From Deltaproteobacteria bacterium (lineage in GTDB: Bacteria > Desulfobacterota > Binatia > HRBIN30 > CADEER01), in the NCBI GenBank assembly GCA_029262455.1, contig JAJCZJ010000020.1:325078-389077 (forward strand): 64,000 nucleotides of DNA. The letters run 5' to 3'. Each line of letters opens with the position of its first letter. Positions within the stretch are counted from its first letter, which is position 1. A program made the position numbers and the translations under genes. The notes beneath the pieces were generated by a model. It made no database searches. It worked only from the letters and a program-made list of their open reading frames with translations, and was not told where the DNA came from. Below, piece after piece: positions 27,473 through 47,900 of the stretch.

Positions 27473-27497
27473 CTGCGGTTCAAATCCCTTGCTCGGC

Positions 27498-30590: not shown

Positions 30591-30673
30591 TCGATGCAAA
30601 TCACTTGCCGTGTCACAAGTTTTCCCCTTTTAAGCTTGACAGGAAGTCAGCGAACGTCGAGACTGCCTCCCGG

Positions 30674-31962: not shown

Positions 31963-32469
31963 ATGAGCGACTCCAAAAAGACAAGAAAGCAGCTAATCGA
32001 AGAACTCGAACAACTTCGTGGTCAAGTCGCGCAGCGACAGCAGTCGCAGTCGGACAACAGTGCACCGGCGCTTGCCGGCGACGTTTCACGACGCACCGCG
32101 CTAAAGGTCGCCTGGACCGCGCCGGTCATTTTGGCAATCCCTCTCCAGGCCGATCGCTCTGGCGCCCAACCTCCGGTCGGAACGGTGGCCCCGGGCTGTC
32201 CCACCATGACCCCGACCAACGCGGCCCCTCCGACTAGCTCGCCGACCTTGTTCCCAACGACCGCTGAGCCGACGATTTCGCCGACTCAACCAGTCCCGAC
32301 CACCAGGTTGCCAACGTCCAGTCCCACGAACGACCCGACATTGCGTCCGACCACCAGCCCGACGATCCCTGCCCCGACGGCTATGCCGACGGCGAGGCCG
32401 ACCACCAGCCCGACGATCCCTGCTCCGACGCTTTCCCCGACCCCTGGTTTCCCGACGCTTTCCCCGTAA
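31963..32469 (+). CDS. Small exported Pro/Thr/Ser-rich protein, paralog A (coiled-coil N-region plus SRRTALK Tat-like motif)
   Basis: Internal Met of ORF 31810..32469: MSDSKKTRKQLIEELEQLRGQVAQRQ...DVSRRTALKVAWTAPVILAIPLQ followed by PTTSPTIPAPT-type repeats. A paralogous N-terminus is found at 45413..45892 on the opposite strand. Confidence 0.5.
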   Translation: MSDSKKTRKQLIEELEQLRGQVAQRQQSQSDNSAPALAGDVSRRTALKVAWTAPVILAIPLQADRSGAQPPVGTVAPGCPTMTPTNAAPPTSSPTLFPTTAEPTISPTQPVPTTRLPTSSPTNDPTLRPTTSPTIPAPTAMPTARPTTSPTIPAPTLSPTPGFPTLSP

Positions 32470-33980: not shown

Positions 33981-34598
33981 GTGTTGTCAATGTTCGATAC
34001 GCCCGCACACCTCGAGCAGCAGACGCGCGAGCAACAGGCCGCAGCCCGGTACTGCGGGCTCGGCTTCAAAAAGGCCACGCTGCCCTCCGAGGTCTTGCAA
34101 CGGTTGCGCCAACACCTGGAAACGAACAGCCGCCGATTCCGCGCCGAGGAGCCCATCGACTACCTCGTCAACCCGGACCCCGGGAAGATTCCGGCCCTTT
34201 ATTTCGAGGACAAAGAATTCAACGCCACCCTAAGTCGCGAGCTACAAGGATTGCACGAAGAGTGGGCCGGAAGGAGTCTGACCGAGTCCGCCTGCTACGG
34301 CATCCGCGTCTATCAACGCGGCAGCTTTCTCTACAACCACGTCGACCACACCGACACACACATCATCAGCTCTTCGATCTGCGTCGACCACCGCCTCGAC
34401 AAGCCGTGGCCCCTCTACGTCGAGGATATCGACGGCAATCCCCACCAGATCGATCTCGACCCTGGCGACATACTGTTCTACGAGGGAGCCCGCCTGCGAC
34501 ACGGCCGTGCCTATCCACTCGAGGGTGACTACTACGCATCCATTTTCGTCCACTATCGACCCGCAAATCTCTGGTCTTCGCGGCTCGTTGGCACCTAG
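33981..34598 (+). CDS. 2OG-Fe(II) oxygenase superfamily protein (PhyH/P4H-like)
   Basis: YNHVDHTD (HxD) followed by a distal H in LRHGR and a jelly-roll-like spacing. Alternative ATG start at 33990. Confidence 0.55.
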   Translation: MLSMFDTPAHLEQQTREQQAAARYCGLGFKKATLPSEVLQRLRQHLETNSRRFRAEEPIDYLVNPDPGKIPALYFEDKEFNATLSRELQGLHEEWAGRSLTESACYGIRVYQRGSFLYNHVDHTDTHIISSSICVDHRLDKPWPLYVEDIDGNPHQIDLDPGDILFYEGARLRHGRAYPLEGDYYASIFVHYRPANLWSSRLVGT

Positions 34599-34640: not shown

Positions 34641-36644
34641 GTGAGACATCTACTCTATACAAACTACCAGTCCGGTCAGTCGGGTTTGAGCAACGGCATC
34701 ATGTCGATCGAGCTGGGCGTGGTCCTCGCGTTCCTGACGAATCGGTTTCTCCTGCTCGATGGCAACATCTCCCCGCCGGCCAATATCGTGTCGTACGGCG
34801 ATCGAGTCGACAACAGCCAGCCGAGCCGCGTCACCGACCTGATCGACCTACCGGTCGCCTGGAGTGAGCCAGGAAGCGTCGACGTGTCCAAGTTGCCGTT
34901 CCTCGAATTGAGCGACGACCATCTGGGGAGTGCCGCGTTCTATGTCCCCGGCACCGTCGACATCCGATCCGCCGACGCGGAAGCGTTCGCCAACGGCAGG
35001 ACAGTGTGGCTCAACGCTGGCGGCTCGCTCGACGAGATCCCGGTGCTGCGAGTGTCCGAGGATCACAGCAAAGACAATCTTCGATACAATCTCAACTACT
35101 ACTCGTACTTCTTCTACCTCGACGACGAAACGCGTCGCTCCGTCTACCGCATGCTCGAGCGGATGCAACCAAAGCAGGACCTAGGGGAGCTGGCGAAGCG
35201 CGTCGCCGGCGATCTCGGAGCATTCAACGCGGTGCACTTGCGACGCGGTGACTTCAAGGTGACCTATGGAGTCACCACCCTCGACCGTCAACCTTGGGAA
35301 GCAATCGAGGCGCTCGAGCATCACTTCAAACGCGACGACACTCTGGTCTTCGTGACCGACGAGCGCGACGACCCGTTCTTCGACGAGATCAAGAAGGTCT
35401 ATACGCATCACGTATTCATCGATCACCACATCCTCGACGACTACGAGAAGGACTTCGCCGCATTGCAGCACCGCGACAGCATCGCCTTGGCCTATCTTTC
35501 CCAGCTCGTGGCGGCCGAATCCGCCGACTTCATTGGCACCATGACCAGCACGTTCACCGCCATCATCCAGCGCTACCGCGGCAATCGCGGCAAGGCCGAG
35601 AGTTTCAAGTACCTTTGGAACGAGCTCCCGGACGACGGCGATCGTCTCGAACGCGGCCGTCATCCGGTTAGTGAGTGCGTCCCGATGGACCGCGGCATGA
35701 TGGTCGAAGAGTCGTCGGGTCCGTACTCATGGAATCGCTACAACAAGAGGATCGCCGCCAACTGGATGCGCGAATGGCCCGAAAGTTTTCTGACCCAAGA
35801 GAGCCTCGAAACCGGCAAATTGACGACCGGGGCCAGCCCCGTTGCCCGCCCCATCGTTCTGGTTCGTCCCGAAAGGACGAAAGTCGAGGTCGCGTTCGAC
35901 GGCTTGAGCATCATTCTAAACTCGCAAGTGCCTCGCGTTGCGACCAAGCTGAGCGAAGCCTTCGAATCACGCCAAGCTGCGAGTCCAGCGAACGTCATCG
36001 GGGAGTTCGAGGTTGCTGAAGAAGACGGCGACTTCCGTCTTCTGCAACGCGGCCAGGAAATCGCCACCGCAGCAAGCTACGAGGAGTTGGCGCGCACGTT
36101 AAAACTCCGCATGGTGCCGATCTTTGTCGGTGCGCGCCGCCGGCACGTGTGGCTGGAAGCTTTTTCCTTCCGTAGAGCAGGCCATGCGCTGGTTCTCGCC
36201 GGCGACATGGGTCCTCCATCGGACTGGCTGCCGGACGCCATGTGCTCGAACGGCTGGGAGCTGCTGTGGGACGAGATCGTCCCGATCCGCCTGGAAGACT
36301 GTACCGTCACACCGTTCGGCCGCACGACCTGGCCGAAGGGCGCAGCCCTGCGCATCGACCGTACGCCCTGTCGCGTCAGCGGCCTGATCGTCACCAGCCG
36401 ACAAGTCCAGCGCCGCGACACCTTGACCGTCTTGTCCCCAGCCACCGGGGTGGCGGAGTTGATCGGCCGCTGCGTCGACTTCCGCACCGACCGCAAGCGG
36501 GCGGTAGAACGCCTGTGCAAGCTGGTCGAGAAACGAACCGTAGGCAGACTGTCCTTCAGCCGCGCCGAGACCGCTGTCGATCTCCTCACGCGCCCCTTCC
36601 TCGACGCGGAGCGTGAGTCCGCCCACGGTACAAAGTCTGCATGA
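34641..36644 (+). CDS. Fucosyltransferase-superfamily GT-B (O-FucT-like) domain plus ~250-aa C-terminal domain of unknown function
   Basis: N-terminal QSGLSNGIMSIELGVVLAFLTNRFLLL resembles the GGLxNQ block of O-FucT/POFUT-like GTs. HLRRGDF matches the H-x-R-R-G-D motif shared by GT11/GT23/GT65/GT68. The C-terminal region has no recognised motif. Confidence 0.45.
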   Translation: MRHLLYTNYQSGQSGLSNGIMSIELGVVLAFLTNRFLLLDGNISPPANIVSYGDRVDNSQPSRVTDLIDLPVAWSEPGSVDVSKLPFLELSDDHLGSAAFYVPGTVDIRSADAEAFANGRTVWLNAGGSLDEIPVLRVSEDHSKDNLRYNLNYYSYFFYLDDETRRSVYRMLERMQPKQDLGELAKRVAGDLGAFNAVHLRRGDFKVTYGVTTLDRQPWEAIEALEHHFKRDDTLVFVTDERDDPFFDEIKKVYTHHVFIDHHILDDYEKDFAALQHRDSIALAYLSQLVAAESADFIGTMTSTFTAIIQRYRGNRGKAESFKYLWNELPDDGDRLERGRHPVSECVPMDRGMMVEESSGPYSWNRYNKRIAANWMREWPESFLTQESLETGKLTTGASPVARPIVLVRPERTKVEVAFDGLSIILNSQVPRVATKLSEAFESRQAASPANVIGEFEVAEEDGDFRLLQRGQEIATAASYEELARTLKLRMVPIFVGARRRHVWLEAFSFRRAGHALVLAGDMGPPSDWLPDAMCSNGWELLWDEIVPIRLEDCTVTPFGRTTWPKGAALRIDRTPCRVSGLIVTSRQVQRRDTLTVLSPATGVAELIGRCVDFRTDRKRAVERLCKLVEKRTVGRLSFSRAETAVDLLTRPFLDAERESAHGTKSA

Positions 36645-37630
36645 CAGACCAAGCAACCGCACCGCGCCAGATCGACATCCGCATCTCCACCATCGGCGGG
36701 CACGAGTATCGGTTGAATCTCCGCGAAGACGCCGTCCATTTGCGCGACCTCTTTACTCGATTCGTCAACCGACCGGCGACTGGGGCTGTCCGAGCTCCTG
36801 AATTCATCCAACTGCCCCTCGACGGAGGCAACGCTTCCTGCACGATCGCCGTCGATCAGATTGTGTCGATCGTCACCACGCCACCAGTCGTCATCGAAGT
36901 GCAACAACCCGCCGTCGAGCCAAACGTAATTCCAGATGTGCCGGCAGTGGTCGCGCCACCCCAGATCCGGCGCGCACACTACACGGTGATCGACGACTTT
37001 CTCACCGTCGATGAGCACCGAGACATGCTGGCGTTGGCATTGAGCGAGAAGGACAGCTTCGAACCCGGTACGGTGCAGGGTGAACCGAGTCCACACCGAC
37101 GAAACAGCGTCATCATGAACTTCGCAGACTCGGCGCACGGAACACTGCTGACAAGTCGTCTGCTCGTTTGGTTTCCATTGATCGCAAAGGCGCTGAAGGA
37201 ACCACTGTTTCCGCTCAAGACGGTCGAGTCGCAACTGACCGCCGCCAACGACGGAGACTACTATAAGCCTCACCTCGATACCGACGGGAAGACCCCCGAT
37301 TTCCGGGTCATCGCGTGCGTCTACTATTTCTTCCGCGAGCCAAAAGGGTTCACGGGCGGCGACCTACGCCTCTATGATTCCATCGAAACAGGTGGCGAAA
37401 TCTGTCAGGCGGATTCCTTCCAAGACATTCGGCCGGCAAGCAATCGCTTGGTCGCATTCACCTGCGAGACCTTCCACGAGCTGCTCGCGACTCGCTGCCC
37501 GTCCAAGGATATCGAAGACAGTCGTTTTGCGGTGACCGCGTGGTTTCACCGCAGCGGCGCACCGGACCCCGACGCCAAGTTCGGTTGGGGACATTATCGT
37601 TGCGGCGAAGTTCCGGAGGCACTGCGGTGA
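36641..37630 (+). CDS. Novel ~80-aa N-terminal domain fused to a prolyl-4-hydroxylase-like 2OG-Fe(II) oxygenase
   Basis: C-terminal domain has YYKPHLDTD (HxD), GGDLRLY, NRLVAF..ETFHEL (second His) and RFAVTAWF (2OG-binding Arg), which is the P4H pattern. The N-terminus IDIRISTIGGHEYRLNL...LRDL...QLPLDGGNASCTIAVDQIVSIVTTPP is paralogous to the N-terminus of the 29406 protein. ATGA overlap with the upstream gene. Confidence 0.6.
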   Translation: MTDQATAPRQIDIRISTIGGHEYRLNLREDAVHLRDLFTRFVNRPATGAVRAPEFIQLPLDGGNASCTIAVDQIVSIVTTPPVVIEVQQPAVEPNVIPDVPAVVAPPQIRRAHYTVIDDFLTVDEHRDMLALALSEKDSFEPGTVQGEPSPHRRNSVIMNFADSAHGTLLTSRLLVWFPLIAKALKEPLFPLKTVESQLTAANDGDYYKPHLDTDGKTPDFRVIACVYYFFREPKGFTGGDLRLYDSIETGGEICQADSFQDIRPASNRLVAFTCETFHELLATRCPSKDIEDSRFAVTAWFHRSGAPDPDAKFGWGHYRCGEVPEALR

Positions 37631-37802: not shown

Positions 37803-38930
37803 ATGATCTTCACGGTTTTCGTCGCACCGGTCGAACCAACGCAACAGTGGCGTGCCGATCTCCTCGAATACTCATGGCGACGCATCAAGCAGAGCGGCGA
37901 ACTGATCCGGCTGGCGCCAACCGCCCCCGGACGCGCACCAGGTAGCAGAGGGAGAGTCGGGAGAACCGTCAAAACGTTCGACTGGAACCCCCACCCGTAC
38001 ACCCAGGACGTGTACGCCGGCTATCAGACAACCGCCGGCGTACTCGAGTGGTTGTTCAACGAGCCGGCCGAAGGAACAGTCCTTTTGCTGGATTCGAGCT
38101 GCATCCTACGCCACCCGGTTACAGCAGAGGTCGAACCAGGCCACGTGCGCGGGTCGTCGTGGCCGGAGATCCCACTTGGCACGGACGGCCCATTCGGCCT
38201 GCATGATGATCTGAAGTTTCTCGAATCCTATTGCGTCAACCGCAAGCTCCCCCTCGCTCCCGTGCGGATGCCGATTTTGATCCACACGGCGGACCTGCGA
38301 AAAATCGCGGCGCGCTGGCTCGAGCTTACGGCGTTGATTCGATCCCATGCCGTAGGCGTTCACGGAAAATACCTTCATGCAGATCGCGTCGCCTACACCG
38401 TCGCCGCCGCCGAATACCGCATCCTCCACACCCTTGACGACCTCGGCACTACGACGTCGGATACCGGCAAAGACGTTCCGATCGTCGACTACAGCACACC
38501 GATCAAGTCCAAACAGGGAGAGATCGTCTGGGACCGAAAGGTCTATCGACCATGGGAGGCAGTCTACACCGAAAATGCGCGCGCAGGCGCAGGCAGAGAC
38601 GTACTCGGGATCCTGAACGAGATGGTGACGCGCCGCGAATCGGGAGCCGAGCTTGCGGCAACACGTCCACAGCGGTGCTACGGGGTGCGGGAAGCACGAA
38701 TTCTCGACGACATTCATCTCGAAGTACCTGGGTGTGCCGACTTGATGTCGCTGAATCAATCCGCGGCTGCCATCTGGGAGCTGTGCAACGGCGAGAACAC
38801 ACTCGCCGAGATCGTCAGCGAGCTCGAGAGACAATTCGACGCGTCACGCGAAACCCTCATGACATCCGTCGAATCGACGGCGAGGGATTTGGAAAGCTCA
38901 GGTGCCATCGAGCTGGAGGAGCTGTTCTGA
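37803..38930 (+). CDS. Unassigned N-terminal (possibly glycosyltransferase) domain with C-terminal PqqD-like (RRE) domain
   Basis: C-terminal 83 aa ILDDIHLEVPGCADLMSLNQSAAAIWELCNGENTLAEIVSELERQFDASRETLMTSVESTARDLESSGAIELEE match the PqqD pattern. N-terminal ~290 aa begin MIFTVFVAPVEPTQQWRADLLEYSWRRIKQSG. Confidence 0.5.
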   Translation: MIFTVFVAPVEPTQQWRADLLEYSWRRIKQSGELIRLAPTAPGRAPGSRGRVGRTVKTFDWNPHPYTQDVYAGYQTTAGVLEWLFNEPAEGTVLLLDSSCILRHPVTAEVEPGHVRGSSWPEIPLGTDGPFGLHDDLKFLESYCVNRKLPLAPVRMPILIHTADLRKIAARWLELTALIRSHAVGVHGKYLHADRVAYTVAAAEYRILHTLDDLGTTTSDTGKDVPIVDYSTPIKSKQGEIVWDRKVYRPWEAVYTENARAGAGRDVLGILNEMVTRRESGAELAATRPQRCYGVREARILDDIHLEVPGCADLMSLNQSAAAIWELCNGENTLAEIVSELERQFDASRETLMTSVESTARDLESSGAIELEELF

Positions 38931-40156
38931 TGGCATCCAAAGCAAAACCAAGCGCCAAAAAGTCCGTGCCGACCACAAAAACAAAGCACGCAGCAAAACG
39001 TGCCAAAGCCTCGGCCAAGAAAACAGCCAAAGCGCCGCCCGGAAAAGCCACGACAGCACGGGCGAAGAAGACCACCAAGACTCCGGCCTCCAAGAGCCCC
39101 AAAACCCGGACCCAAAGGACCCGGGCCCAAAAGCCCCGGGCCCGCAAAGCCGCGCTCAAAGTATCGCAAACGGTGTCGCCCAAAGGATCGCAAACGACTT
39201 CGAAGACGGAGCGAACGACCCCATCGCCTCGCGCAAAGTCGCGGCAGGCCACAAAACAACCCCAGATCTTCGTGTCGATCGCCTCCTACCGCGACCAGTT
39301 TCTTCACTTCACCATCGAGTCGGTGCTCAAACAGGCGACGTACCCAGAACGGTTGACCTTCGGCCTCTGCTGGCAAGCCGACGACACCGAGCAACTCGAT
39401 CAATACCTGCACGATCCGCGTTTCCGCATTCGCAAGTACCCGTACTACGCGAGCCTCGGCTACGGTTGGGCAAGAGCCGAGATCCAAAAACTATACGCCG
39501 GCGAAGAGTACCATCTACTGATCGATTCTCACACGTATCTCGCCAAGGGGTGGGACGAGAATCTGATCGCGCAACTCGAGAGCAAGCCGGGCGAGAAGCC
39601 GCTACTGACGACCAGCTCACCCCCTTTCACCTTCGACAATGACGGCAACGTCGTAATCCCGTGGCAAGGGACCGAACACGACGGCGTGCCGCTGATGAAG
39701 TGCGCACGAATCCAACCGGCAGGGTGGGTCGACATCCAGATGTCCAATGAGCGCAAGTCCACCAAACATCAAACCACCGGATTGGTGTGCTGTAACTTTG
39801 TCTTCACGCACGGGGCTTGGATCCGCGAAGTGCCCGAGGATCCGGCGATGATCAACGCCGGCCACGAGTCAGCCCTTTCGGTTCGTACCTTCACCCACGG
39901 ATACGACATCTACCTGCCCGACGAAATTCAAATCTGGCACCTCGACTACAACAACTACCCGAACGGTGAGCGCAACAAGGTATGGGAAGCAAAGTCCGAC
40001 AGTTGGCAGTCTGAGGGCACCGAGATCATGCTGCGGCGGCTGCAAGCGCTGTTCTACAACCGCGGCGACCGCGCCTCGCTCGGCCGCTACGGACTCGGTC
40101 GATCCCGCACCGTAGCCGACTGGGCGGAGATCACCGGACTCGACCTCAGTGACTGA
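38930..40156 (+). CDS. GT60-like (Glyco_transf_GlcNAc / Skp1-Hyp and mucin-Thr GlcNAc-transferase family) enzyme with ~110-aa Lys/Ala/Thr-rich histone-H1-like N-terminal tail
   Basis: ATG overlaps the upstream stop (TGATG). Tail MASKAKPSAKKSVPTTKTKHAAKRAKASAKKTAKAPPGK... Catalytic region starts IFVSIASYRDQFLHFTIESVLKQATYPERLTFGLCWQADD, which I recognise as the N-terminal signature of the GT60 family from memory (needs HMM confirmation). Paralogous to 46893..47900. Confidence 0.45.
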   Translation: MASKAKPSAKKSVPTTKTKHAAKRAKASAKKTAKAPPGKATTARAKKTTKTPASKSPKTRTQRTRAQKPRARKAALKVSQTVSPKGSQTTSKTERTTPSPRAKSRQATKQPQIFVSIASYRDQFLHFTIESVLKQATYPERLTFGLCWQADDTEQLDQYLHDPRFRIRKYPYYASLGYGWARAEIQKLYAGEEYHLLIDSHTYLAKGWDENLIAQLESKPGEKPLLTTSSPPFTFDNDGNVVIPWQGTEHDGVPLMKCARIQPAGWVDIQMSNERKSTKHQTTGLVCCNFVFTHGAWIREVPEDPAMINAGHESALSVRTFTHGYDIYLPDEIQIWHLDYNNYPNGERNKVWEAKSDSWQSEGTEIMLRRLQALFYNRGDRASLGRYGLGRSRTVADWAEITGLDLSD

Positions 40157-41942
40157 CGTCGACTCCGCACTACTGCCAATTCCCCAACCCGAGTGGCGTG
40201 CTTCTTTATCCGGCGACGGCGCGGCAGTTGATGTCCTGATTTTAAGCAAGGACCGCGCCTGCCAACTCGACGGACTGCTGCGCACGATGCGCGCGTTCCT
40301 GACCATCCCACACCGGAAATACGTACTGTACAAGACGTCTAATTTGGCGTTCGAGCGCGGCTACGACATGCTCCGCCGGTGGAATCCCGAGGTCGAGTTC
40401 ATCGACGAGGCGCAAACGTTTCGACAATGCTACCTCGACCTCGTGGCAAGGATCGCCGCCGGGCCTGGTCGCTACTGGATGCCGGTGATGGACGACATGA
40501 TCTTCACTCGCACGTTCACCGCACAGCCACTCATCGACCTCCTCGACACAGACGAGGACGTGCTGGCGATCTCTCTGCGCCTCGGCGAGAACATTACCTA
40601 TTGCTACACCCGAAACGCTCCAACCACACCTCCGGACTTCAGCAACGGACACCGTTGGGAATGGAGAACAGCCAGCCCAGGCTACTGGAACTATCCAATG
40701 TCCGTCGACGCCAACATCTACCGCACGGCGGAAATGGCCGAATACATCCCGACCCTCCAATTCGGCAAGGCTGAAGTCATCGAGGCACGCATGGCCGGGG
40801 TGCCCTTGAACCGCCCCCATATGCTGTGTGAACCGACCCCCAGCGTACTCAATCTCGCGATCAACCGCGTTCAACACACCTTCAAGAATCGGCACGGCAC
40901 AATCACGCCAGAAGCCCTGAACGGCGCTTTCCTCGCGGGTTTCGCGATGGATGTGCGCCCGTTGCTGGGTCGAACCTTCAACGCCTGTCACGTCGAGGTC
41001 GAGCTGTCCTTGGTCCCCGATGCGCGCGAGCGCCCCGGCGCAACGCCCCTCTCTTCGACCGGCTGGAAACCACAGCGAAACGGCGCCGTCGTCGTGACCG
41101 AGAGCCATGCTGTCGTGACGCTCAAGAGGAACGGAACGAAGCTCAAACTCAATCAGAGCGCCGAAGAGATCTGGAAACTGTGCGACGGAACACGAACGCC
41201 CGAGGACATCCAAAACGAGCTCGCGCAACATTTTGACGCAACCCCGCGCCAGCTTCACAGCGGCGTACGAAGCGCCCTGGCGAATTTCATCAATCACGGC
41301 CTTCTCCGTCAGGAACGCCCGGAAGGCGCATACCGCCGCATCGACCTGCGCCAGATTCCCTGCTTCGTGATCAATTGCGAAGCCGATGCTGAGAAGGACA
41401 CGTTGATGAAGCGTCAGCTCGCTGAGCTCGGGATACCGTACGAACGTGTACCCGGGATCGCCGCAAGCCCGGATTGGGTCGGCGTCGCGCTGTCGCACCT
41501 CAAAGTGCTTCGCCTGACCCGCTCGACGACACCCTTCCTGGTGCTCGAGGACGATTGCTTGTTCAACGACCGCTTCCAACCAGTGTGGCAAGTACCGGTC
41601 GAGGCCGACGCCCTGTATCTCGGCGTTTCCGAGTTCGGCCTCGAGACCCCCGGTCACTTCAGCTGGGGCCGCCGGCGCAAGAACCAATGGAGACCCTACG
41701 ACCGGTCCTTCCTCCGCATTTTCAACATGCTCGCACGCCATGCGGTCGTGTACCTTTCCAACGACTACTGCGAGCAAGTCATCCAATCGCAAATCGAAGC
41801 ACTGACGAATCGAAGTTTGCCGTACCCTGGGGACATCGGCTGCGCGATGCTGCAAGCATCGCACGTCGTCCTGACCCCGAACGAACCGATCTGCCGGCAA
41901 ACCGGTCGTGACTCGACCGTGCGTCCGTTGCCGGAGCTCTGA
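40149..41942 (+). CDS. Three-domain enzyme: GT-A (GT2-like) domain - PqqD-like (RRE) domain - GT25 family glycosyltransferase domain
   Basis: GTG start overlapping the upstream stop. N-terminal VDVLILSKDRACQLDGLLRTM and a DDM motif (GT-A). Residues ~312-388 VVTLKRNGTKLKLNQSAEEIWKLCDGTRTPEDIQNELAQHFDATPRQLHSGVRSALANFINHGLL (PqqD-like). C-terminal CFVINCEADAEKDTLMKRQLAELGIPYERVPGI matches the GT25 N-terminal motif (LPS GT25 / collagen Hyl-galactosyltransferase family). Confidence 0.5.
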   Translation: MTDVDSALLPIPQPEWRASLSGDGAAVDVLILSKDRACQLDGLLRTMRAFLTIPHRKYVLYKTSNLAFERGYDMLRRWNPEVEFIDEAQTFRQCYLDLVARIAAGPGRYWMPVMDDMIFTRTFTAQPLIDLLDTDEDVLAISLRLGENITYCYTRNAPTTPPDFSNGHRWEWRTASPGYWNYPMSVDANIYRTAEMAEYIPTLQFGKAEVIEARMAGVPLNRPHMLCEPTPSVLNLAINRVQHTFKNRHGTITPEALNGAFLAGFAMDVRPLLGRTFNACHVEVELSLVPDARERPGATPLSSTGWKPQRNGAVVVTESHAVVTLKRNGTKLKLNQSAEEIWKLCDGTRTPEDIQNELAQHFDATPRQLHSGVRSALANFINHGLLRQERPEGAYRRIDLRQIPCFVINCEADAEKDTLMKRQLAELGIPYERVPGIAASPDWVGVALSHLKVLRLTRSTTPFLVLEDDCLFNDRFQPVWQVPVEADALYLGVSEFGLETPGHFSWGRRRKNQWRPYDRSFLRIFNMLARHAVVYLSNDYCEQVIQSQIEALTNRSLPYPGDIGCAMLQASHVVLTPNEPICRQTGRDSTVRPLPEL

Positions 41943-41977: not shown

Positions 41978-44900
41978 GTGAAAAAGGGCACAATCCACGA
42001 TCTCTTCTCCCGCACCGCTTGCGTCGTGTCCGACAGGCACCGATTCATCTATTTGACGGCGCAAAACGCCACGTCTTCCCTGAAGGCCGAGCTGTCGAAC
42101 GAGCACTGCGGCGGCGTTGTCCTCGCCCGCGCACAGGTGGCTGATAAACTCTGGAACCAATACTTTACGTTCGCCTTCCTGCGCGACCCGCTGACGCGCT
42201 TTCTCTCCGCCTATCAGGAAGTGTCTCTGCACATGGAGCGTGACAAACTCGAACCGCGCCCTTTCGGCCGGATGCCCGACGGCCTCGATCGCTTTCAGGC
42301 ATTTCTCGCGGACGTCGAGCAGAACGGTCCGTGGAACGAGCACATTGCACTCCAGCTAGCCTTCGTCGAGCGCCGAAGAATCGACTTTTGGGGGCTCGTC
42401 GAAACGCTGCAAGACGACTTCCAACAAATCTACACCCGGCTGGGATTGGGGACCTGTCCCGTTCTGCCAAAACGCCGCTCTCGCAGCGGCCGTGAGGAAA
42501 AGGACGGCATCTCGCGCTTCGCCTTCCATCCGGAGGACCTCGATGCGACGACAATTGAGCGCATCTACGACCTCTACCGTGAGGACGTCTTGCTGATTCG
42601 AGCGGTTCGCCCCGACGCACCTGAAATGCAGCCGCACTCAACCCGTGCCGCACCGCCCCCCGGAATGGTGCAGGTGGCGATCGCCCTGGCCAACGGCGGC
42701 GAATACTCCCTCGAACTTCCGCCCGGCCAACCAGAGCTGGGCGCTCTGCAAGCTGTGGTATCACCACAACAATCCGATGGACGTTTTCTCGGCCCGCAAG
42801 TTCTGCAGGTTCCACTGCGTGGTGGCAATTCCGCGCTGACGTTTTCCACGCAGCACCTCGTTCGTCTCGAGCTACGCCCCCCCGACGCCCGAGAACTGCG
42901 CCGAATCGAGGCGCCGGCCACCGGCACGGGCAACTCCGGAGTGAATCTAATAAACGTCGGGAACAAGCGGCCGCCAACCGAGGACCCATCGAGCAATATC
43001 GACGAGGCGCATCTCGGTGGCTACATTCGTGCGGCCAATACACCGATTCTCCACAGCGCCGCAGGCCCACACGGGGACCGGGGAACCTGGAATCCGCTGC
43101 TGTGGCGTTGGGCAATCGAAGATCTCGACGTGCGATCAGTGATCGATATCGGATGCGGCGAGGGACACGCCGCCGGATTTTTCTCCGACGGCGGGTGTGA
43201 AGTGCTCGCGCTCGATGGCAGCCTTCAAGCGCGCTATTCCAGCGTTGTTCCAGATCGCCACGTCGTACACGACTTCGTCGAGGGACCTTTCGTCCCAGAG
43301 AAAAGCTTCGACATGGCCTGGACCTGCGAGTTCGTCGAACACGTCGAGGCGCGTTTTCTCCACAATTTCCTGGCTACGATCGCATCGAGCCGCAAGTACG
43401 TGATGATGACGTTCGCCAGCCCGACACAAACAGGCTGGCATCACGTCAATTGCCAAGAACAGGGTTACTGGGTCGATCAGTTGGGACGCCTCGGGTTTCG
43501 CCTGGACGACGATCTAACCGAGAGAGGCCGAGCCTTGGCTCACTCTCATTTTCGCGAACGTGGCCTGGTCTTCGTCCGGCACCATCGAAAAGGCGAGTCA
43601 TCGAAGTCCACAGAACCGTCGCTGCGCGCGACTGCCGAGAGTCACTGTCTCGACCCGCTGCCGGTCCAATCCATGCAGGTCGCACAGCGCGAGAGCGATG
43701 CCTTCTACCTGTTTGTCGACATCTTCGTGCATCCGACCGCACCGAGAATCGTGGCGATCTCACCACCCTATGGCGAAGACTGGAATCCTAACGTTGTCGG
43801 CATCGACTACGATGCCGTCGACCTTGTATTCGGTGACATACGCGTCCGCGGCCGCTGCCTGCGGCACCGTCTCGACTCCTGGGAGCCTTGCATGCTTCTC
43901 GAGTTCGAGGACGAAGACCTAACAGAGCGCATTCGGGCCAACGACGAGATCAACGTCACGATCGAGGCCGGCTCGCATTCGTCGTCCTTCGTCCTGACGA
44001 CCCGCCCAGCGCCAGCCTACGATGTCGCAATGAGCCTCGTCGTACGCAACGAAAACCGCTGGATCCGCACGTTTCTCGACTACTACCTCGACTGCGTCAA
44101 AGCCGACCACGTCTTCATCTACGACAACGGAACGTCGGAACAAGACCAGCTGCTTTCCATTCTTCACCCGTACCGAGAGCGCGGGCAAGTGACGTACATC
44201 CCGTGGGATTTTCGCTGGCGCAACCGCATCGACCGCAAGATGATCGGCCAACCGACACAGGAGGCTCACTCCCTTGCAAGATTCGCAAACACCGGGTGGA
44301 TCGGCTTTCTCGACATCGACGAGTTCCTGCGCTTGCCGCACAGCACCCTGCCACAATTTCTCGCTCGCTTCGCGTCCGCGGAGGTCGACGGACTCTCGTT
44401 CGGTATCCGGTGGTTTTCTTACGAGGGCCCGCTTGCACTCGATGAGATTACGAGTGTGCCACTGCAATTCCTCCACTCGCGCCGCAATGAGCTCGGCCGA
44501 AAACGGCAGAAGTTCTTCGTCAAAGGCGGCGGCTCGAAGTTTCTTCGCTTGCATTGGCTCGAAGACGGAGGTCGCGAACTGCCCATCGACGACACCGAGA
44601 TCTACTTTCACCACTACGATCAACGTCCCGGCCGTTTCGAAGAAGGAAAGCAAATCGGAGGAGCGCGCGACGAATACATGCTGCGCTTCGCCGACCAGCT
44701 CTCGCGCCCCGAGCGGCACAGAGCCCCTCTAACCGAGAGAGGATGGATCACCCACATCAACTCTTCGATCGAACGCGCCGAACGCGACACCTCCAAACTC
44801 ACCCCGGAAGTCCTCGCCGTCGACGGCATGTGCGGGCGCTACACCCGTCACTTCTACAACAACCTCTGCAGCTTCGGAGGATGCCGCTACCTCGAGATCG

Positions 44901-45385
44901 GCAGCTATCACGGGGCCAGCACCTGCGCGGCAATCTTCGGCAACGACGTATCCGCCGTGTGCATCGACAATTGGACACAGTTTCACGGCAAGCGAAGCCG
45001 CTTCGAGGATGCCCTACGACGCTTCCGAGGAGATCGCTCGGTCCGAGTCATCGAGCAAAACTGCTTCGAAGTAGACGCCTCAAGCCTCGGCCCATTCGAC
45101 ATCTATCTCTACGATGGCGACCACAGCCAGCAGAACCAGTACCGAGCCTTGCAGCACTTCGTTCAGACGCTGGCCAAGCTCGCCGTAGTCGTCATCGACG
45201 ACTGGAATCGTCGGCATATCCGTCGGGGGACACAGGACGCGATTCGGGACCTCGAACTCGATGTAATCTTCGACCGAGAGATCCTACTGCCAACCGACCA
45301 GACGGCGGATGAAAACCGTGACGCTGGAGCGCGAACTTGGTGGAACGGACTCTACATCATGCTCGTTCGCAGTAGAACGCAGTAG
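41978..45385 (+). CDS. 1135-aa five-domain enzyme: sulfotransferase (Sulfotransfer_2-like) - novel ~80-aa domain - class I SAM methyltransferase - GT-A glycosyltransferase (DIDEFL) - TylF/CmcI-like O-methyltransferase
   Basis: GTG start. Five domains are visible:
- (1) 5'-PSB-like RFIYLTAQNATSSLKAEL and 3'-PB FLRDPLTRFLSAY, carbohydrate sulfotransferase motifs.
- (2) MVQVAIALANGGEYSLELP...LQVPLRGGNSALTFSTQHLVRLELRPP, homologous to the N-termini of the 29406 and 36641 proteins.
- (3) RSVIDIGCGEGHAAGFFSDGGCEVLALD, methyltransferase motif I.
- (4) HVFIYDNGTSEQ...GWIGFLDIDEFL, GT-A DxD.
- (5) FDIYLYDGDHS, Methyltransf_24 (TylF/MycF-like) motif. Confidence 0.55.
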   Translation: MKKGTIHDLFSRTACVVSDRHRFIYLTAQNATSSLKAELSNEHCGGVVLARAQVADKLWNQYFTFAFLRDPLTRFLSAYQEVSLHMERDKLEPRPFGRMPDGLDRFQAFLADVEQNGPWNEHIALQLAFVERRRIDFWGLVETLQDDFQQIYTRLGLGTCPVLPKRRSRSGREEKDGISRFAFHPEDLDATTIERIYDLYREDVLLIRAVRPDAPEMQPHSTRAAPPPGMVQVAIALANGGEYSLELPPGQPELGALQAVVSPQQSDGRFLGPQVLQVPLRGGNSALTFSTQHLVRLELRPPDARELRRIEAPATGTGNSGVNLINVGNKRPPTEDPSSNIDEAHLGGYIRAANTPILHSAAGPHGDRGTWNPLLWRWAIEDLDVRSVIDIGCGEGHAAGFFSDGGCEVLALDGSLQARYSSVVPDRHVVHDFVEGPFVPEKSFDMAWTCEFVEHVEARFLHNFLATIASSRKYVMMTFASPTQTGWHHVNCQEQGYWVDQLGRLGFRLDDDLTERGRALAHSHFRERGLVFVRHHRKGESSKSTEPSLRATAESHCLDPLPVQSMQVAQRESDAFYLFVDIFVHPTAPRIVAISPPYGEDWNPNVVGIDYDAVDLVFGDIRVRGRCLRHRLDSWEPCMLLEFEDEDLTERIRANDEINVTIEAGSHSSSFVLTTRPAPAYDVAMSLVVRNENRWIRTFLDYYLDCVKADHVFIYDNGTSEQDQLLSILHPYRERGQVTYIPWDFRWRNRIDRKMIGQPTQEAHSLARFANTGWIGFLDIDEFLRLPHSTLPQFLARFASAEVDGLSFGIRWFSYEGPLALDEITSVPLQFLHSRRNELGRKRQKFFVKGGGSKFLRLHWLEDGGRELPIDDTEIYFHHYDQRPGRFEEGKQIGGARDEYMLRFADQLSRPERHRAPLTERGWITHINSSIERAERDTSKLTPEVLAVDGMCGRYTRHFYNNLCSFGGCRYLEIGSYHGASTCAAIFGNDVSAVCIDNWTQFHGKRSRFEDALRRFRGDRSVRVIEQNCFEVDASSLGPFDIYLYDGDHSQQNQYRALQHFVQTLAKLAVVVIDDWNRRHIRRGTQDAIRDLELDVIFDREILLPTDQTADENRDAGARTWWNGLYIMLVRSRTQ

Positions 45386-45412
45386 AAACGCCGCAAATAT
45401 CGAAACCGGGAA

Positions 45413-45892
45413 TTACTCCTCGCCCTTGGTTTCTTTTCCCACGGGAGCCGGTCGGCCCTCGTCGTCATCCGAAGCAATGAGCTTTTTAGCACCGAAGCCA
45501 AAGAGCGCCGCTGCGGCCACAGCCGCGGCGCCGCCTGAAACCACAGGCGCATCGACTGCTGCCTGAAAGGCGGTCGGAACCGCCGTACTGGGAAGGCCCG
45601 GATCGAGGACCGTCGGGACCTGCGTCGGTGCGGCAGTAGGATTGAGGCAAAGTGACGGCGAATTGGTACATTGCGTCGTCCCAGCTTCGACAGGCGCGAC
45701 GAATCCAAGATCAGACGAGACCGGTACCGATAAGATCACCGGCGTTACCCAGGCAATCTTGAGCGCCGAGCGCCTTGAAATATCGTCGGAAAAAGTCGGC
45801 CGCGCCGCCTTCCCGTCCGTCACCAGCTCGCCCCGCAGCCGCTCGATCTCCTCGAGAAGCTCCTTTTTCGTCTTCGTTCCGTCACCCGCCAT
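45413..45892 (-). CDS. Small exported Pro/Thr/Ser/Ala-rich protein, paralog B (coiled-coil N-region plus SRRSALK Tat-like motif, C-terminal hydrophobic segment)
   Basis: Internal Met of ORF 45413..45997, preceded by gagggtc. MAGDGTKTKKELLEEIERLRGELVTDGK...DISRRSALKIAWVTPVILSVPVSS, then a PT-rich region with two Cys, then AAAVAAAALFGFGAKKLIASDDDEG. Confidence 0.5.
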   Translation of the reverse strand: MAGDGTKTKKELLEEIERLRGELVTDGKAARPTFSDDISRRSALKIAWVTPVILSVPVSSDLGFVAPVEAGTTQCTNSPSLCLNPTAAPTQVPTVLDPGLPSTAVPTAFQAAVDAPVVSGGAAAVAAAALFGFGAKKLIASDDDEGRPAPVGKETKGEE

Positions 45893-46048
45893 TATAGACC
45901 CTCTCCAATGCTGCCGCTGCCATAGCAAGAATCCGACCCAAATCCCAGGCCTGCGACATCGATTTCCTGGATTCGCGGTGAGACACCCCCTGCGCACTCG
46001 TAGCAGCGGCTCGGCAGCCTATCCCGATCAAGTGGGAGAATGGGCGTG

Positions 46049-46744
46049 TCATCCCACCCCGCAGACCTCCCGACCCGTGGCTTCACGATAGTAGGACACA
46101 TCCTCGGCGCAAATGCGCAAAGCCAGTTCTCGCGTCTCCCCATCATAGAAAAGCTCCGGAACCGGCATCCCGTGCCGGCGAAGCCAGCCCGGGGAACGAT
46201 CTGTCGCGCGCTCTCGAATCGTCACGTCCTGCGGCGAAGGATTCTCGTGCAGGACCGGCGCGGAAACCGAAACTCTCTCGTTTAAGCTCGCCAGCCCCCG
46301 CGAGAGATCTTCCACCGCAACGACTTCGTCGAAGTCTATCTGATGCGTGTTTCGGACCTGCGGCACCAAATGGTGCTGGGGTTCGATCCCGCGGGTCTGA
46401 ACATGCTGCAAGGTGTAGAGGAACTTGCGAAAGCTCTTGTCCCGCAGCGAGAGCTTCCGGTCATCGTCGGCAAAGCACCACAACGTTTCATCGCGCACGA
46501 CCCACAAGGTGTAGAACCCGACGAGTCGGCGAAGCGGATCGCGCACAAAGAAGACCTTCCAATAGTCACGACAGCGGTCGATGTCGCCGTGCCAAATCAG
46601 GAAAGCGTCAAGGTCTTCGACCGGTTGCTTCGTCTTCTCCTCAATCGCTGCCTTGCACCACGATCGGATGCTGTTCGAACCACACTTGGGACTATAGACG
46701 GCAAGTACTTCGAGTGGATCCGCGGCTAGGAAGAAGTGGGCCAT
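46049..46744 (-). CDS. Carbohydrate sulfotransferase-like protein (Sulfotransfer_2/3 family); possible N-terminal extension through the heptad repeat to a GTG at 46900
   Basis: From MAHFFLAADPLEVLAVYSPKCGSNSIRSW (5'-PSB PKCGS) and FFVRDPLRRLVGFY (3'-PB). The ORF-track version starts at a GTG at 46898-46900, 5 nt upstream of the preceding gene's stop, which is a coupling-type overlap. That start would add (T-S-H-E-S-P-V)n repeats to the N-terminus. Confidence 0.5.
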   Translation of the reverse strand: MAHFFLAADPLEVLAVYSPKCGSNSIRSWCKAAIEEKTKQPVEDLDAFLIWHGDIDRCRDYWKVFFVRDPLRRLVGFYTLWVVRDETLWCFADDDRKLSLRDKSFRKFLYTLQHVQTRGIEPQHHLVPQVRNTHQIDFDEVVAVEDLSRGLASLNERVSVSAPVLHENPSPQDVTIRERATDRSPGWLRRHGMPVPELFYDGETRELALRICAEDVSYYREATGREVCGVG

Positions 46745-46759
46745 GGGGATTCTATGTGT

Positions 46760-46878
46760 GTGATTGGTGACTGGTGATTCGTGACTGGTGACTGGTGATT
46801 CGTGACTGGTGACTGGTGATTCGTGACTGGTGACTGGTGATTCGTGACTGGTGACTGGTGACTGGTGACTGGTGATTG
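46760..46878. repeat. 17 tandem copies of a heptanucleotide (GTGACTG/GTGATTC; 21-nt super-unit x4) between the GT60-like gene and the sulfotransferase
   Basis: Read directly: gtgattg gtgactg gtgattc gtgactg gtgactg gtgattc ... gtgactg gtgattg. On the minus strand this is CAGTCAC/GAATCAC. In the reading frame of ORF 46049..46900 it encodes the heptad TSHESPV five or more times. Confidence 0.8.
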
Positions 46879-46892
46879 GTTGGGCAAAAGTT

Positions 46893-47900
46893 CTACACAC
46901 CGGCGCCGGCCTGGTACTCTTCGAAAGTGACGCAGCTCTCCCAGTCGGACGGCGACCGGATTGTCACTGGGTCGGGGTTCGCGCCACTAAACGCATCCGG
47001 ATGCGCGCGTTTGGCTCGGAAGTCAAAGCCCGAAAAAATCTCGTAGTCCCGCAAGGTCCGCACCCGACCGAAACCGTACGGTCCGGGCAGCGGTGATTCA
47101 TAGCTCGAGAGCAGCTGTTCCAAACGGGCAAACGCCTCGCGGTTGCGGCGCTCGACGACGTCTTCCCCCTGCTCCCAATGGCGCCGCGGCGGCCCGTCGT
47201 TGTGCTGCATGTGCCATGCCACGACTTCCGTTGGAAGAAAGAAGTCGTACCCCCAGGTGTACGAACGAATGGTCACATTCAGCTCTTCGCCCCAATAGTA
47301 TTGTCCGGGATCCTGCGGCACCTCGACATTCCAGATGCCGCGCGAGAACGCGAAGTTGCCGTTGACAAACCGTGTACGCCCCGGCTTCTTGACGTTGGGG
47401 GCTCCAAAGTCGAACCACGGCGCCCAATGGTCCGACGCGCTCCAGCCGCTCACCTTGGTCGTCGGCACACCCATTTCAGTACGACGCTGCGGCACACCAT
47501 CCTCGTCGTACCAGAATAGGGGAGCATTCATGCTGAGAACGGGTTTCTCACTGGGGAGAGCCTCCAGCATCTCGATCAGCCGCGCGTCCCAGTCGGGCTC
47601 GAGCTTCATATGGGAATCGATCTGCAGAGTGTAGGGTTCACCTCGCCACAGAGACTGCGCAATATTACGCGCCCAGGGGCCGCCCTGGCTTGCCGCAATC
47701 GTCGTATCCACAAACCGAAACCGCGGATCTCGGCGAAAATCCTCCAACGGCACCGGCGCTTTTGGGTCACGCTGCCAGCAAATTCCGAAACGCAGCGAAT
47801 CTGGAGCACTTGCCGTTTCGATCGCGTCACGCAAGGTGCGCGGCAACTCGGGGTCCGTGTACGACGCGATCGCGACGAAGATCTGAGGGTGGGAAGCCAC
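46893..47900 (-). CDS. GT60-like (Glyco_transf_GlcNAc family) glycosyltransferase, paralog of 38930..40156 without basic tail
   Basis: GTG start (MASHPQIFVAIASYTDPELPRTLRDAIETASAPDSLRFGICWQRD). Collinear similarity with the 38930 protein (IFV[AS]IASY.D, [IL]CWQ, DSH, W...E, WH). Confidence 0.45.
   Translation of the reverse strand: MASHPQIFVAIASYTDPELPRTLRDAIETASAPDSLRFGICWQRDPKAPVPLEDFRRDPRFRFVDTTIAASQGGPWARNIAQSLWRGEPYTLQIDSHMKLEPDWDARLIEMLEALPSEKPVLSMNAPLFWYDEDGVPQRRTEMGVPTTKVSGWSASDHWAPWFDFGAPNVKKPGRTRFVNGNFAFSRGIWNVEVPQDPGQYYWGEELNVTIRSYTWGYDFFLPTEVVAWHMQHNDGPPRRHWEQGEDVVERRNREAFARLEQLLSSYESPLPGPYGFGRVRTLRDYEIFSGFDFRAKRAHPDAFSGANPDPVTIRSPSDWESCVTFEEYQAGAGV

Follow-up and report, generated by a model that had tools for sequence, protein, structure and literature searches.

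How might a bacterium use a small Pro/Thr/Ala-rich protein whose gene lies just beyond, and points towards, an operon of glycosyltransferases and hydroxylase-like oxygenases? The question arises from a 64,000-nucleotide stretch of a Binatia genome (GenBank assembly GCA_029262455.1, contig JAJCZJ010000020.1, positions 325,078 to 389,077 of the forward strand; hereafter the window), in which an earlier reading of the bare sequence, here called the original prediction, had placed two small paralogous genes, A and B, at opposite ends of this operon. Our analysis shows that B is a real gene and suggests that its product is very probably a substrate of the adjacent leader-guided glycosylation cassette. 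We also lean, with more modest confidence, towards a complete chain of events in which the protein would be modified in the cytoplasm, exported, and anchored in the membrane by its tail.

Gene B, its twin A and the leader they share

The open reading frame (ORF) of precursor B occupies positions 45413-45892 of the minus strand and encodes 159 amino acids (aa) plus a stop codon, with a translation equal to the protein quoted in the original prediction. The minus-strand frame is open across 45413-45997, the ATG lies at 45892-45890, and a Shine-Dalgarno-like GGAGAGGG (45899-45906, minus strand), read from the sequence, stands 6 nt 5' of it. The operon's last gene, which encodes 1135 aa, is convergent with B, and its stop (45385) is separated from the stop of B by the predicted gap of 27 nt. 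The identical B gene is found in an independent assembly (Logan SRR15505514) as well as in the NCBI assembly. A promoter/terminator scan, which was uninformative, found no sigma-70-like promoter around B, and no terminator hairpin was found between B and the convergent 1135-aa gene. A perfect 10-nt direct repeat (CGCAGTAGAA, twice) at 45368-45387 runs across the stop of that gene and the 27-nt spacer.

Gene A (31963-32469, plus strand, 168 aa) occupies the canonical precursor position, upstream of the first enzyme gene, and encodes the same leader followed by a long core of x-Pro-Thr (xPT) repeats without a C-terminal anchor. BLASTP aligns A and B with 39% identity over 112 residues (E = 2e-21), mostly within the first 60 residues, so that the common leader claimed by the original prediction is borne out, as are the different, Pro/Thr/Ala-rich core of B and its opposite orientation at the far end of the operon. 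According to tblastn and motif scans in six frames, A and B are the only two copies within the 64-kb window. The prediction had further raised the idea of duplication or recombination, visible as longer inverted-repeat similarity in a dot-plot of the two flanks, and this idea found no support: no extended inverted-repeat DNA joins the flanks of A and B, the longest arms measuring 29 nt with 72% complementarity, no more than chance would give. We therefore rejected both a recent duplication and an invertible segment, and take the duplication of A and B to be old.

Protein B falls into a two-part leader, a core and a C-terminal module. The first part of the leader (residues 7-25, KTKKELLEEIERLRGELVT; 45818-45874, minus strand) is an N-terminal amphipathic helix, and AlphaFold2 predicts the helix at residues 9-25 as the sole confidently structured part of the protein (predicted local distance difference test, pLDDT, ~91). 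The second part (residues 39-58, SRRSALKIAWVTPVILSVPV; 45719-45778, minus strand) is a block resembling a twin-arginine signal; it reads R40-R41-S-A-L and conforms to the R-R-x-hydrophobic-hydrophobic definition of PMC10924467. The core (residues 59-115; 45548-45718, minus strand) is Pro/Thr/Ala-rich and predicted to be disordered (pLDDT 50-58), and it holds four xPT sites (NPT, APT, VPT, VPT) and, near its end, the family motif PTAF. The two Cys residues pointed out by the original prediction are present in this core, though they are not conserved in the closest homolog, P0002. A hydrophobic segment follows (residues 116-138, PVVSGGAAAVAAAALFGFGA and then KK; 45479-45547, minus strand), which we regard as a putative tail-anchor helix: residues 116-136 reach a Kyte-Doolittle maximum of 1.79 in a 19-residue window and are followed by K137-K138. 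The protein ends in an acidic tail (residues 139-159, LIASDDDEGRPAPVGKETKGEE; 45416-45478, minus strand), predicted to be cytoplasmic. In this layout of charges RR precedes the first hydrophobic segment and KK follows the second, which marks the predicted cytoplasmic side of each.

Neither A nor B matches any family in Pfam or NCBIfam at E <= 0.01. Word-indexed searches with B and with a three-leader profile returned 2 + 2 matches, consisting of B itself, P0002 (a 46% identical homolog of B) and two short metagenomic relatives; with so few matches from these searches, the family is visible only by exhaustive HMMER search. Such a search, run with a leader profile against 1.84 billion representative proteins, gave 93 matches at E <= 1e-3 and 47 at E <= 1e-10, nearly all of them 90-230 aa long with the leader starting at residue 1, and the leader hidden Markov model matched B at E = 7e-22. 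The family forms about 90 clusters at 50% identity, and its named members are called 'hypothetical protein' by their sources.

Across 80 representatives the leader is near-invariant, while the cores vary in length, repeat type and C-terminal module. The helix has the consensus MSDxxKTKxELLxELExLR, whose residues K, T, L, E, L and R show 76-99% conservation, and an acidic spacer of 12-51 residues, rich in Ala, Gly, Ser, Glu and Asp, connects it to a block with the consensus (S/T)RRxxLxxAWVAPVILSVPL, in which W and P are invariant and V-A-P-V-I-L is 76-100% conserved. The arginine pair is present in 82 of 91 family members, and KR stands in its place in 7. An AxA motif occurs within 25 residues past the hydrophobic (h-) region in 58 of the 80 representatives, the median distance being 10 residues (as in RAQAQ, KAQAQ or VFAQS), and 66 of the 80 have a basic residue in the c-region. 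The mature regions consist of 19% Pro and 16% Thr in low-complexity xPT repeats, with 690 PT dipeptides observed among the 80 representatives against 203 expected from composition.

The C-terminal modules fall into several classes. The commonest, with about 22 members, carries FPTxxPxxIPVELSEFEI(S/D/E) at the extreme end and has no hydrophobic segment; this IPVELSEFEI-type end could be a sorting, attachment or strand-donation tag. Its members include P0007, P0011, P0012, P0018 and P0026, and it is present in loci L005, L009, L010, L012, L013, L015, L017 and L018. Type II, with about 17 members including B, consists of P-A-L-S/G, an Ala/Gly-rich hydrophobic stretch, Lys/Arg and an acidic tail of 15-35 residues; the module is conserved in 15 aligned members, and the acidic tail follows the basic residues in all type II members. 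The hydrophobic segment and acidic tail that the original prediction described in B are thus kept in about 17 family representatives, and B is apparently a type II, tail-anchored member of the leader family. A further class of about 16 members has the form GRCIxAPT...SPTLGMAAAPD...GFVALGSARA, three members end in a PLLDPDR class, and A has no special end. Two relatives are composite proteins. P0009 (450 aa) is a sulfotransferase read through into a precursor, the two lying adjacent on the same strand in another genome, and in P0070 (227 aa) the leader and PT region are joined to a C-terminal domain starting DIRLKQNI..., which we take to resemble the intramolecular-chaperone domain of phage tail spikes.

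The enzyme cassette and its conservation beside the precursor

We scanned genomes with a leader alignment, taking one genome per species, and obtained 17 loci, 16 of which have the full leader. They come from Binatia, Halieaceae (Luminiphilus syltensis NOR5-1B, Congregibacter), Elongatibacter sediminis and other Lysobacterales, Thermodesulfobacteriota, Acidobacteriota and a Rhodothermales metagenome-assembled genome (MAG). Homologs with the same leader, whose absence elsewhere was to count against the original prediction, therefore exist well beyond the window, and cassette genes adjoin the precursor in 15 of the 16 full-leader loci, from at least four phyla. The cassette has a six-gene core: a glycosyltransferase (GT) fused to a recognition element (RRE) of the kind used for peptides that ribosomes make and that are modified after translation (RiPPs), a prolyl 4-hydroxylase (P4H)-like protein, an O-FucT/HprK protein, a 2-oxoglutarate (2OG) oxygenase, an HPAT-RRE fusion and a GT60, usually with a second GT60 in front. 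All six genes are present in 11 of the 16 loci (12 with L001), the others being cut by contig ends. A reverse look-up starting from homologs of the P4H gene led to two contigs (L020 and L023) with a leader-family gene directly upstream of the RRE-glycosyltransferase. In a Lysobacterales MAG (L016, 9995-10492) we found an orphan precursor with a type I end beside tig-clpP-clpX-lon, with no cassette gene within 10 kb, which indicates that a precursor may be located at a distance from the enzymes. The cassette is also present in cultured strains, namely Luminiphilus syltensis NOR5-1B (L013) and Elongatibacter sediminis CH-27 (L015), and the system is therefore directly testable.

These loci also bear on whether B is a gene at all. 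It could be suspected to be a chance ORF, or a decayed and functionless duplicate of A: it is encoded on the other strand, beyond the operon, few xPT sites are present in its core, and no Pfam or NCBIfam model matches it. Conservation effectively refutes this suspicion. A B-type gene is the sole precursor in the Binatia loci L004, L006 and L014, and again on ERZ25039602:contig_31710 (L001/L024), where the 46%-identical ortholog is the only precursor and takes the same convergent position as B does in the window, with an IS200-type transposase in the position of A. The occurrence of B-type genes as sole precursors argues that B works together with the cassette and is no degenerate duplicate. 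The good ribosome-binding site speaks in the same direction, as does the presence of the B-specific C-terminal module in about 17 representative clusters.

The operon of the window, on the plus strand, contains three PqqD/RRE domains, at residues 36-115 of its 454-aa product, 300-375 of the 375-aa product and 320-395 of the 597-aa product. Its first gene (32612-33976, 454 aa) encodes an N-terminal RRE (PqqD, E = 7.6e-14) fused to a distantly HPAT-like glycosyltransferase; its C-terminal domain matches the HPAT proteins of a Nitrospirales locus, L021, at E = 1e-6, and the gene is present in every complete locus. The second (33981-34598, 205 aa) encodes a small 2OG-Fe(II) oxygenase of P4H-like type with an invariant H120-x-D122...H174-x-R176. 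This protein was identified only through structure prediction and Foldseek: AlphaFold2 predicts a double-stranded beta-helix (pLDDT 94.7), and the top Foldseek neighbours in the PDB are the Pseudomonas putida P4H and human PHD2. Some databases already name its homologs 'prolyl 4-hydroxylase'. The third protein (34641-36644, 667 aa) combines an O-FucT-like domain (E = 1.3e-5) with a C-terminal HprK-related, kinase-like domain (TIGR04352, E = 1.3e-6), both matches lying below the curated cut-offs. The fourth (36641-37630, 329 aa) is a second 2OG-Fe(II) oxygenase (PF13640, E = 3.9e-15), whose sole PDB sequence match is the prolyl 4-hydroxylase 6t8m (E = 4.2e-5). PDB sequence searches with the 205-aa, 454-aa, 667-aa and GT60 proteins gave nothing significant beyond the PqqD domain. 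Judged by fold and sequence, both oxygenases appear P4H-like, with the reservation that substrate specificity is not readable from a fold.

The fifth protein (37803-38930, 375 aa) is an HPAT-like glycosyltransferase with a C-terminal RRE (PqqD, E = 1.9e-13). Its N-terminal domain shares 37% identity with two proteins of the Nitrospirales locus L021 (BLASTP E = 7e-59 and 1e-55), which pass the Pfam HPAT model at 50-55 bits, and 5 of 14 members of its own family match that model, PF23452, directly (E <= 0.01). The sixth gene (38930-40156) encodes a GT60-type polypeptide GlcNAc-transferase (PF11397, E = 5e-44) with a Lys-rich N-terminal extension; its start at 38930 was placed by ortholog alignment and by an ATG that overlaps the previous stop. 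The extension, about 100 aa long (38930-39240), Lys/Ala/Thr-rich and histone-H1-like, includes a 15-nt repeat (39096-39143); the GT60 ortholog of L001 (306 aa) lacks the extension. Two accessory genes complete the operon, one for a 597-aa protein (40149-41942) with a central RRE (PqqD, E = 3.6e-11) and a weak GT25-like domain (E = 0.0038), which is present in some loci only, and the other for the 1135-aa protein (41978-45385) that faces B, in which Pfam recognises sulfotransferase, methyltransferase, GT92 and methyltransferase domains in that order.

Upstream of B, on its own minus strand, lie a sulfotransferase gene (46049-46900; Sulfotransfer_2, E = 4.6e-8), whose true start is probably near 46744, and a second GT60 gene (46893-47900; PF11397, E = 1.1e-43). 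A sugar-nucleotide epimerase/reductase gene is found on the same strand. A GT60 of the second type flanks the precursor in nearly all loci. Between the stop of this GT60 gene (46893) and the probable sulfotransferase start (~46744), the heptanucleotide GTGACTG is repeated about 17 times at 46760-46880, with a 21-nt super-period (x5.8, 96% matches), and reads as SHESPVT repeats in the long ORF. The tract could place the sulfotransferase, and perhaps B downstream of it, under slipped-strand (phase-variable) control.

Proposed modification and export, and the possible role of the twin-arginine block

In the pathway that we propose, B would be made in the cytoplasm as a largely disordered chain, and its bipartite leader, the helix together with the twin-arginine block, would be bound by the RRE domains fused to glycosyltransferases, bringing the core to the catalytic domains. 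The two P4H-like oxygenases would hydroxylate prolines of the xPT sites, and the HPAT-like and GT60 transferases would O-glycosylate hydroxyproline, threonine or both. The O-FucT-like, GT25/GT92-like, sulfo-, methyl- and kinase-like domains would then extend, sulfate, methylate and perhaps phosphorylate the glycans. By established biochemistry, all of these enzymes need cytoplasmic co-substrates (2OG, nucleotide sugars, 3'-phosphoadenosine-5'-phosphosulfate, S-adenosylmethionine, ATP), and no signal peptide or convincing transmembrane segment was found in any cassette enzyme. Because the enzymes are soluble and depend on these co-substrates, export would follow modification, and the finished, bulky glycoprotein would most likely leave by the Tat (twin-arginine translocation) route, by means of the block. 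Signal peptidase would remove helix and signal together, which would account for a cassette without its own protease or transporter; no gene for either was found in the operon of the window (with Pfam) or in the conserved cassette. Finally, the tail anchor would keep B in the inner membrane, its short glycosylated core facing the periplasm and its tail remaining on the cytoplasmic side, and A would be released. The anchoring of B is suggested by the Ala/Gly-rich helix followed by KK and the acidic tail, an arrangement that fits the positive-inside rule.

The use of Tat, to which we give somewhat better than balanced credence, is suggested by features of the family as a whole: the R-R-x-hydrophobic-hydrophobic motif, the weakly hydrophobic h-region, the basic 'Sec-avoidance' c-region and the AxA motif all follow the description of Tat signals in PMC10924467. 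Tat-dependent tail-anchored proteins are, moreover, an established class (PMC10924467).

Several observations weigh against the pathway as a whole or in part. Among curated Tat models, Pfam TAT_signal (PF10518), the sole match that B has at E <= 10, reaches only E = 6.2 and does not match A or three other members, and no NCBIfam model, TIGR01409 included, matches the block of B. The arginine pair at residues 40-41 sits behind an unusually long (~39 residues), conserved n-region that contains the helix, and the h-region is conserved far above what is usual for a signal peptide, which suggests that a protein, an RRE for instance, recognises its specific sequence. B itself has no clean AxA, VEA|G being the only candidate, and no basic residue in the c-region. 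With just four xPT sites it is a weak example of a Pro/Thr repeat acceptor, its C-terminal segment is Ala/Gly-rich and only moderately hydrophobic, and in that segment AlphaFold2 predicts nothing but a short helix at residues 123-130, with confidence below 50. The window's own 375-aa protein matches Pfam HPAT at just E = 0.13. A tblastn search with Escherichia coli TatA and TatC queries found no tatA or tatC in the window or the fetched loci, a result that is silent on the rest of the genome. What the sequences establish is the gene, its family and anatomy, the synteny, the enzyme families and the lack of signal peptides in the enzymes; the substrate relation, the chemistry, the use of Tat, the cleavage of the leader and the tail anchoring are inferred.

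Two variant loci bear on what the block is for. The Nitrospirales locus L021 (GCA_031315915.1) encodes an RRE-glycosyltransferase, both oxygenase types, a GT60, a methyltransferase and two unfused HPAT genes, along with a discrete PqqD and an HprK/ScmC-like protein. At 6188-6469 it has two tandem precursors of 39-41 aa, MKNKQPxKKKEAYTKPEVFTHEPLRNITAAVS(Y/F)P(V/E)PT..., which end in YPVPTVSPT and FPEPT and have neither the helix nor the RR block. This pairing indicates that Pro/Thr cores travel with these enzymes and that the enzymes, as a family, do not depend on the RR block; L021 has the look of an ordinary short-peptide system with the same chemistry. In its first enzyme the RRE is conserved much less (28% identity) than the catalytic domain (48%), and the co-variation of RRE and leader that this suggests comes from a single comparison (n = 1). 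In a Rhodothermales MAG (L019, 9938-11546), by contrast, the precursor has the RR block alone (TRRAILKAGWVAPVVLAVPL), followed by GSKDYG repeats, with no helix and no PT core. It adjoins a discrete PqqD, two HprK-related kinases and an ABC transporter, a further point against our proposal; the RR block is thus common to a different PqqD/HprK peptide system, whose PqqD has its greatest similarity to the RRE of the 375-aa HPAT-like enzyme. The two variants point in opposite ways on the block as export signal or RRE ligand, and it may be both.

The block might accordingly be read as an RRE recognition sequence, a RiPP leader motif of the classical kind, and not an export signal at all. B would then still be a substrate of the cassette, the likeness of the block to Tat signals would be coincidental, and the modified peptide would either remain cytoplasmic or membrane-associated or be exported by an unlinked transporter. 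Such a reading would accommodate the conservation of the block across phyla beyond that of a usual signal-peptide h-region, the silence of the curated Tat models, and the company of the block in L019, where PqqD and HprK-like kinases occur without helix or PT core and next to an ABC transporter, and where PqqD is closest to the RRE of the 375-aa enzyme. It would also fit the Nitrospirales variant, which lacks the block and has HPAT genes unfused to an RRE and a first enzyme whose RRE has diverged more than its catalytic domain. We nevertheless consider it unlikely, as it leaves unexplained the tripartite layout of RR, about 12 weakly hydrophobic residues, a basic residue (66/80) and AxA (58/80, median 10), the positive-inside charges around the second hydrophobic segment of B, the lack of a transporter or protease in the conserved cassette, and the MBOAT gene that flanks it. 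Binding by an RRE and export are, besides, not mutually exclusive roles for the block. A bolder combination of the two, which we put forward as a doubtful speculation, is that the twin-arginine signal itself is what the RRE domains bind, and that they proofread export in the manner of the TorD-type chaperones of cofactor enzymes. The system would then be a multi-phylum, leader-guided cytoplasmic pathway to Hyp/Thr-O-glycosylated, sulfated and methylated extensin/mucin-like proteins (Hyp, hydroxyproline), exported fully glycosylated via Tat, with B tethered and A released. On this reading, hydroxyproline O-glycosylation would have its first bacterial example, and Tat its first natural case of a cargo glycosylated in the cytoplasm.

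The lack of a clear cleavage site in B would suit another explanation, in which A and B would not be substrates but small bitopic membrane scaffolds that recruit the RRE enzymes to the membrane to glycosylate something else. In each of them a helix in the cytoplasm would be followed by an uncleaved signal-anchor and, on the periplasmic side, a Pro/Thr spacer. RRE domains do need a peptide ligand, and the conserved helix would be cytoplasmic in any topology. This explanation seems to us very improbable: P4H-like, HPAT-like and GT60 enzymes act on Pro, Hyp or Thr of polypeptides, for which the xPT core is the obvious acceptor; core length and repeat type vary as they do in a substrate; the Nitrospirales variant uses soluble PT-core peptides of 39-41 aa with no membrane segment; and a short, proline-containing h-region makes a poor stable anchor. 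A role as an anti-sigma-like regulator was rejected as well, there being no adjacent sigma factor gene and the PT core varying like a substrate.

As for the C-terminal module, we interpret it as a tail anchor, although it might instead be a sorting signal, cut by a sortase-like enzyme of the exosortase, rhombosortase or archaeosortase type that would attach the glycopeptide to a lipid or the envelope. A motif, a hydrophobic helix and a basic cluster are conserved together in 15 aligned members, one member has a faint match to an LPXTG anchor (E = 0.29), Tat-dependent sortase substrates are known (PMC10924467), and the conserved C-terminal motifs of other classes, such as IPVELSEFEIS, look like sorting tags. 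Known sorting signals end at the basic cluster, however, and type II members add an acidic tail of 15-35 residues (21 in B). No NCBIfam sorting-signal model matches, and no sortase-like gene is present in the annotated region of the window or in the conserved cassette, all of which makes a sorting signal rather improbable. PEP-CTERM and GlyGly-CTERM signals in particular were rejected as the primary reading of this C terminus, given the acidic tail that follows and the lack of a model match.

Relation to known systems and flanking genes

The closest parallels in organisation are the RRE-dependent RiPPs (PqqA/PqqD, lasso peptides), in which a small gene likewise stands beside PqqD-like RRE enzymes, a conserved N-terminal leader precedes a variable core, and several precursors can share one enzyme set. 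Here, in contrast, the precursors are 100-230 aa, long for the class, and have a low-complexity xPT core; the leader includes a signal-peptide-like block; the enzyme set is made up of hydroxylases and of transferases for glycosyl, sulfo and methyl groups, and includes neither cyclases nor radical SAM enzymes; and a dedicated protease or exporter is lacking. Fusions of an RRE with a glycosyltransferase have appeared only in bioinformatic lists, in surveys by genome mining (PMC7470986, PMC12710340). Glycocins (sublancin, glycocin F) and other glycosylated RiPPs resemble the system in that a ribosomal peptide is glycosylated by an enzyme of the same cluster. They rely, however, on a single SunS-type GT2 without an RRE, which places one or two sugars on Cys, Ser or Thr of a disulfide-stapled helical hairpin, neither of which is found here, and on a dedicated ABC transporter/protease, also absent. 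A glycocin-type bacteriocin was rejected as an identity for B because there is neither a SunS-type GT2 nor an ABC transporter/protease.

In their chemistry, the enzymes recall two eukaryotic pathways. Plant and algal Hyp-rich glycoproteins (extensins, CLE peptides) share the combination of P4H-like and HPAT-family enzymes with Pro-rich repeats (PMC8724618); the plant pathway works in the endoplasmic reticulum and Golgi on Sec-translocated proteins with SPPPP, whereas the system described here would use bacterial, cytoplasmic, RRE-fused enzymes on xPT. GT60 enzymes start mucin-type O-glycosylation in protists, and a related enzyme adds GlcNAc to the Hyp of cytoplasmic Skp1 (PMC8724618). The two strong GT60 genes beside prolyl hydroxylases in the window echo the latter pathway, which is cytoplasmic and proceeds by hydroxylation and then stepwise sugar addition, and the Thr/Pro-rich acceptors here are like those in the mucins of Dictyostelium and T. 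cruzi. Unlike its protist counterparts, the present system is bacterial and leader/RRE-targeted, offers many repeat sites where Skp1 has a single Pro, and makes a product apparently intended for export. For the last stage the nearest likeness is that of Tat tail-anchored proteins, which combine an N-terminal twin-arginine signal with one C-terminal helix followed by positive charges and are finished in the cytoplasm and exported afterwards (PMC10924467). Those proteins are folded, globular and mostly cofactor-bearing, whereas B is disordered, with an n-region of about 39 residues that holds a conserved helix and no match to a curated Tat model.

We found no description of the precursor family or the cassette in the literature searched (RRE with glycosyltransferase, P4H, hydroxyproline, GT60, Tat with RiPP, HPr kinase with PqqD). 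By analogy with the systems above, we would rate this one as a new RiPP-like class that joins targeting of the RRE-RiPP type, chemistry of the extensin, mucin and Skp1 type, and export of the Tat tail-anchor type.

The O-glycosylation of hydroxyproline in proteins is counted among eukaryotic traits, as is mucin-type glycosylation by GT60 enzymes, and we know of no RiPP class built on dense O-glycosylation of Pro/Thr repeats. The locus and its ~90 relatives suggest that bacteria, too, join extensin- and mucin-type chemistry to leader/RRE targeting and to export after modification. If this is true, they would constitute a new family of bacterial surface or periplasmic glycoproteins. Such a route for exporting proteins glycosylated in the cytoplasm could be of interest to glyco-engineering, and its leader-addressable glycosyltransferases and prolyl hydroxylases could serve as tools. 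The pair of A and B in one locus would provide a built-in comparison between a released and a membrane-tethered product.

Two further features flank the cassette of the window. On the minus strand (24941-28907) lie the genes for an MBOAT protein (DltB/AlgI-like) and for an 876-aa protein with a single transmembrane segment and no Pfam match. An MBOAT and its single-transmembrane partner flank the cassette in five loci; the pair recurs in L003, L006 and L012, and an MBOAT gene is also found in L023. The two proteins may O-acylate the exported product, which would fit an extracytoplasmic location of that product. On the plus strand (30086-31942), a gene that stops 20 nt before A encodes a Cys-rich, disintegrin-like repeat protein with acidic double-disulfide repeats. 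It ends in SPGG, a hydrophobic helix and RKN, an arrangement resembling a sorting signal, and its homologs precede the precursor in L003 and L023.

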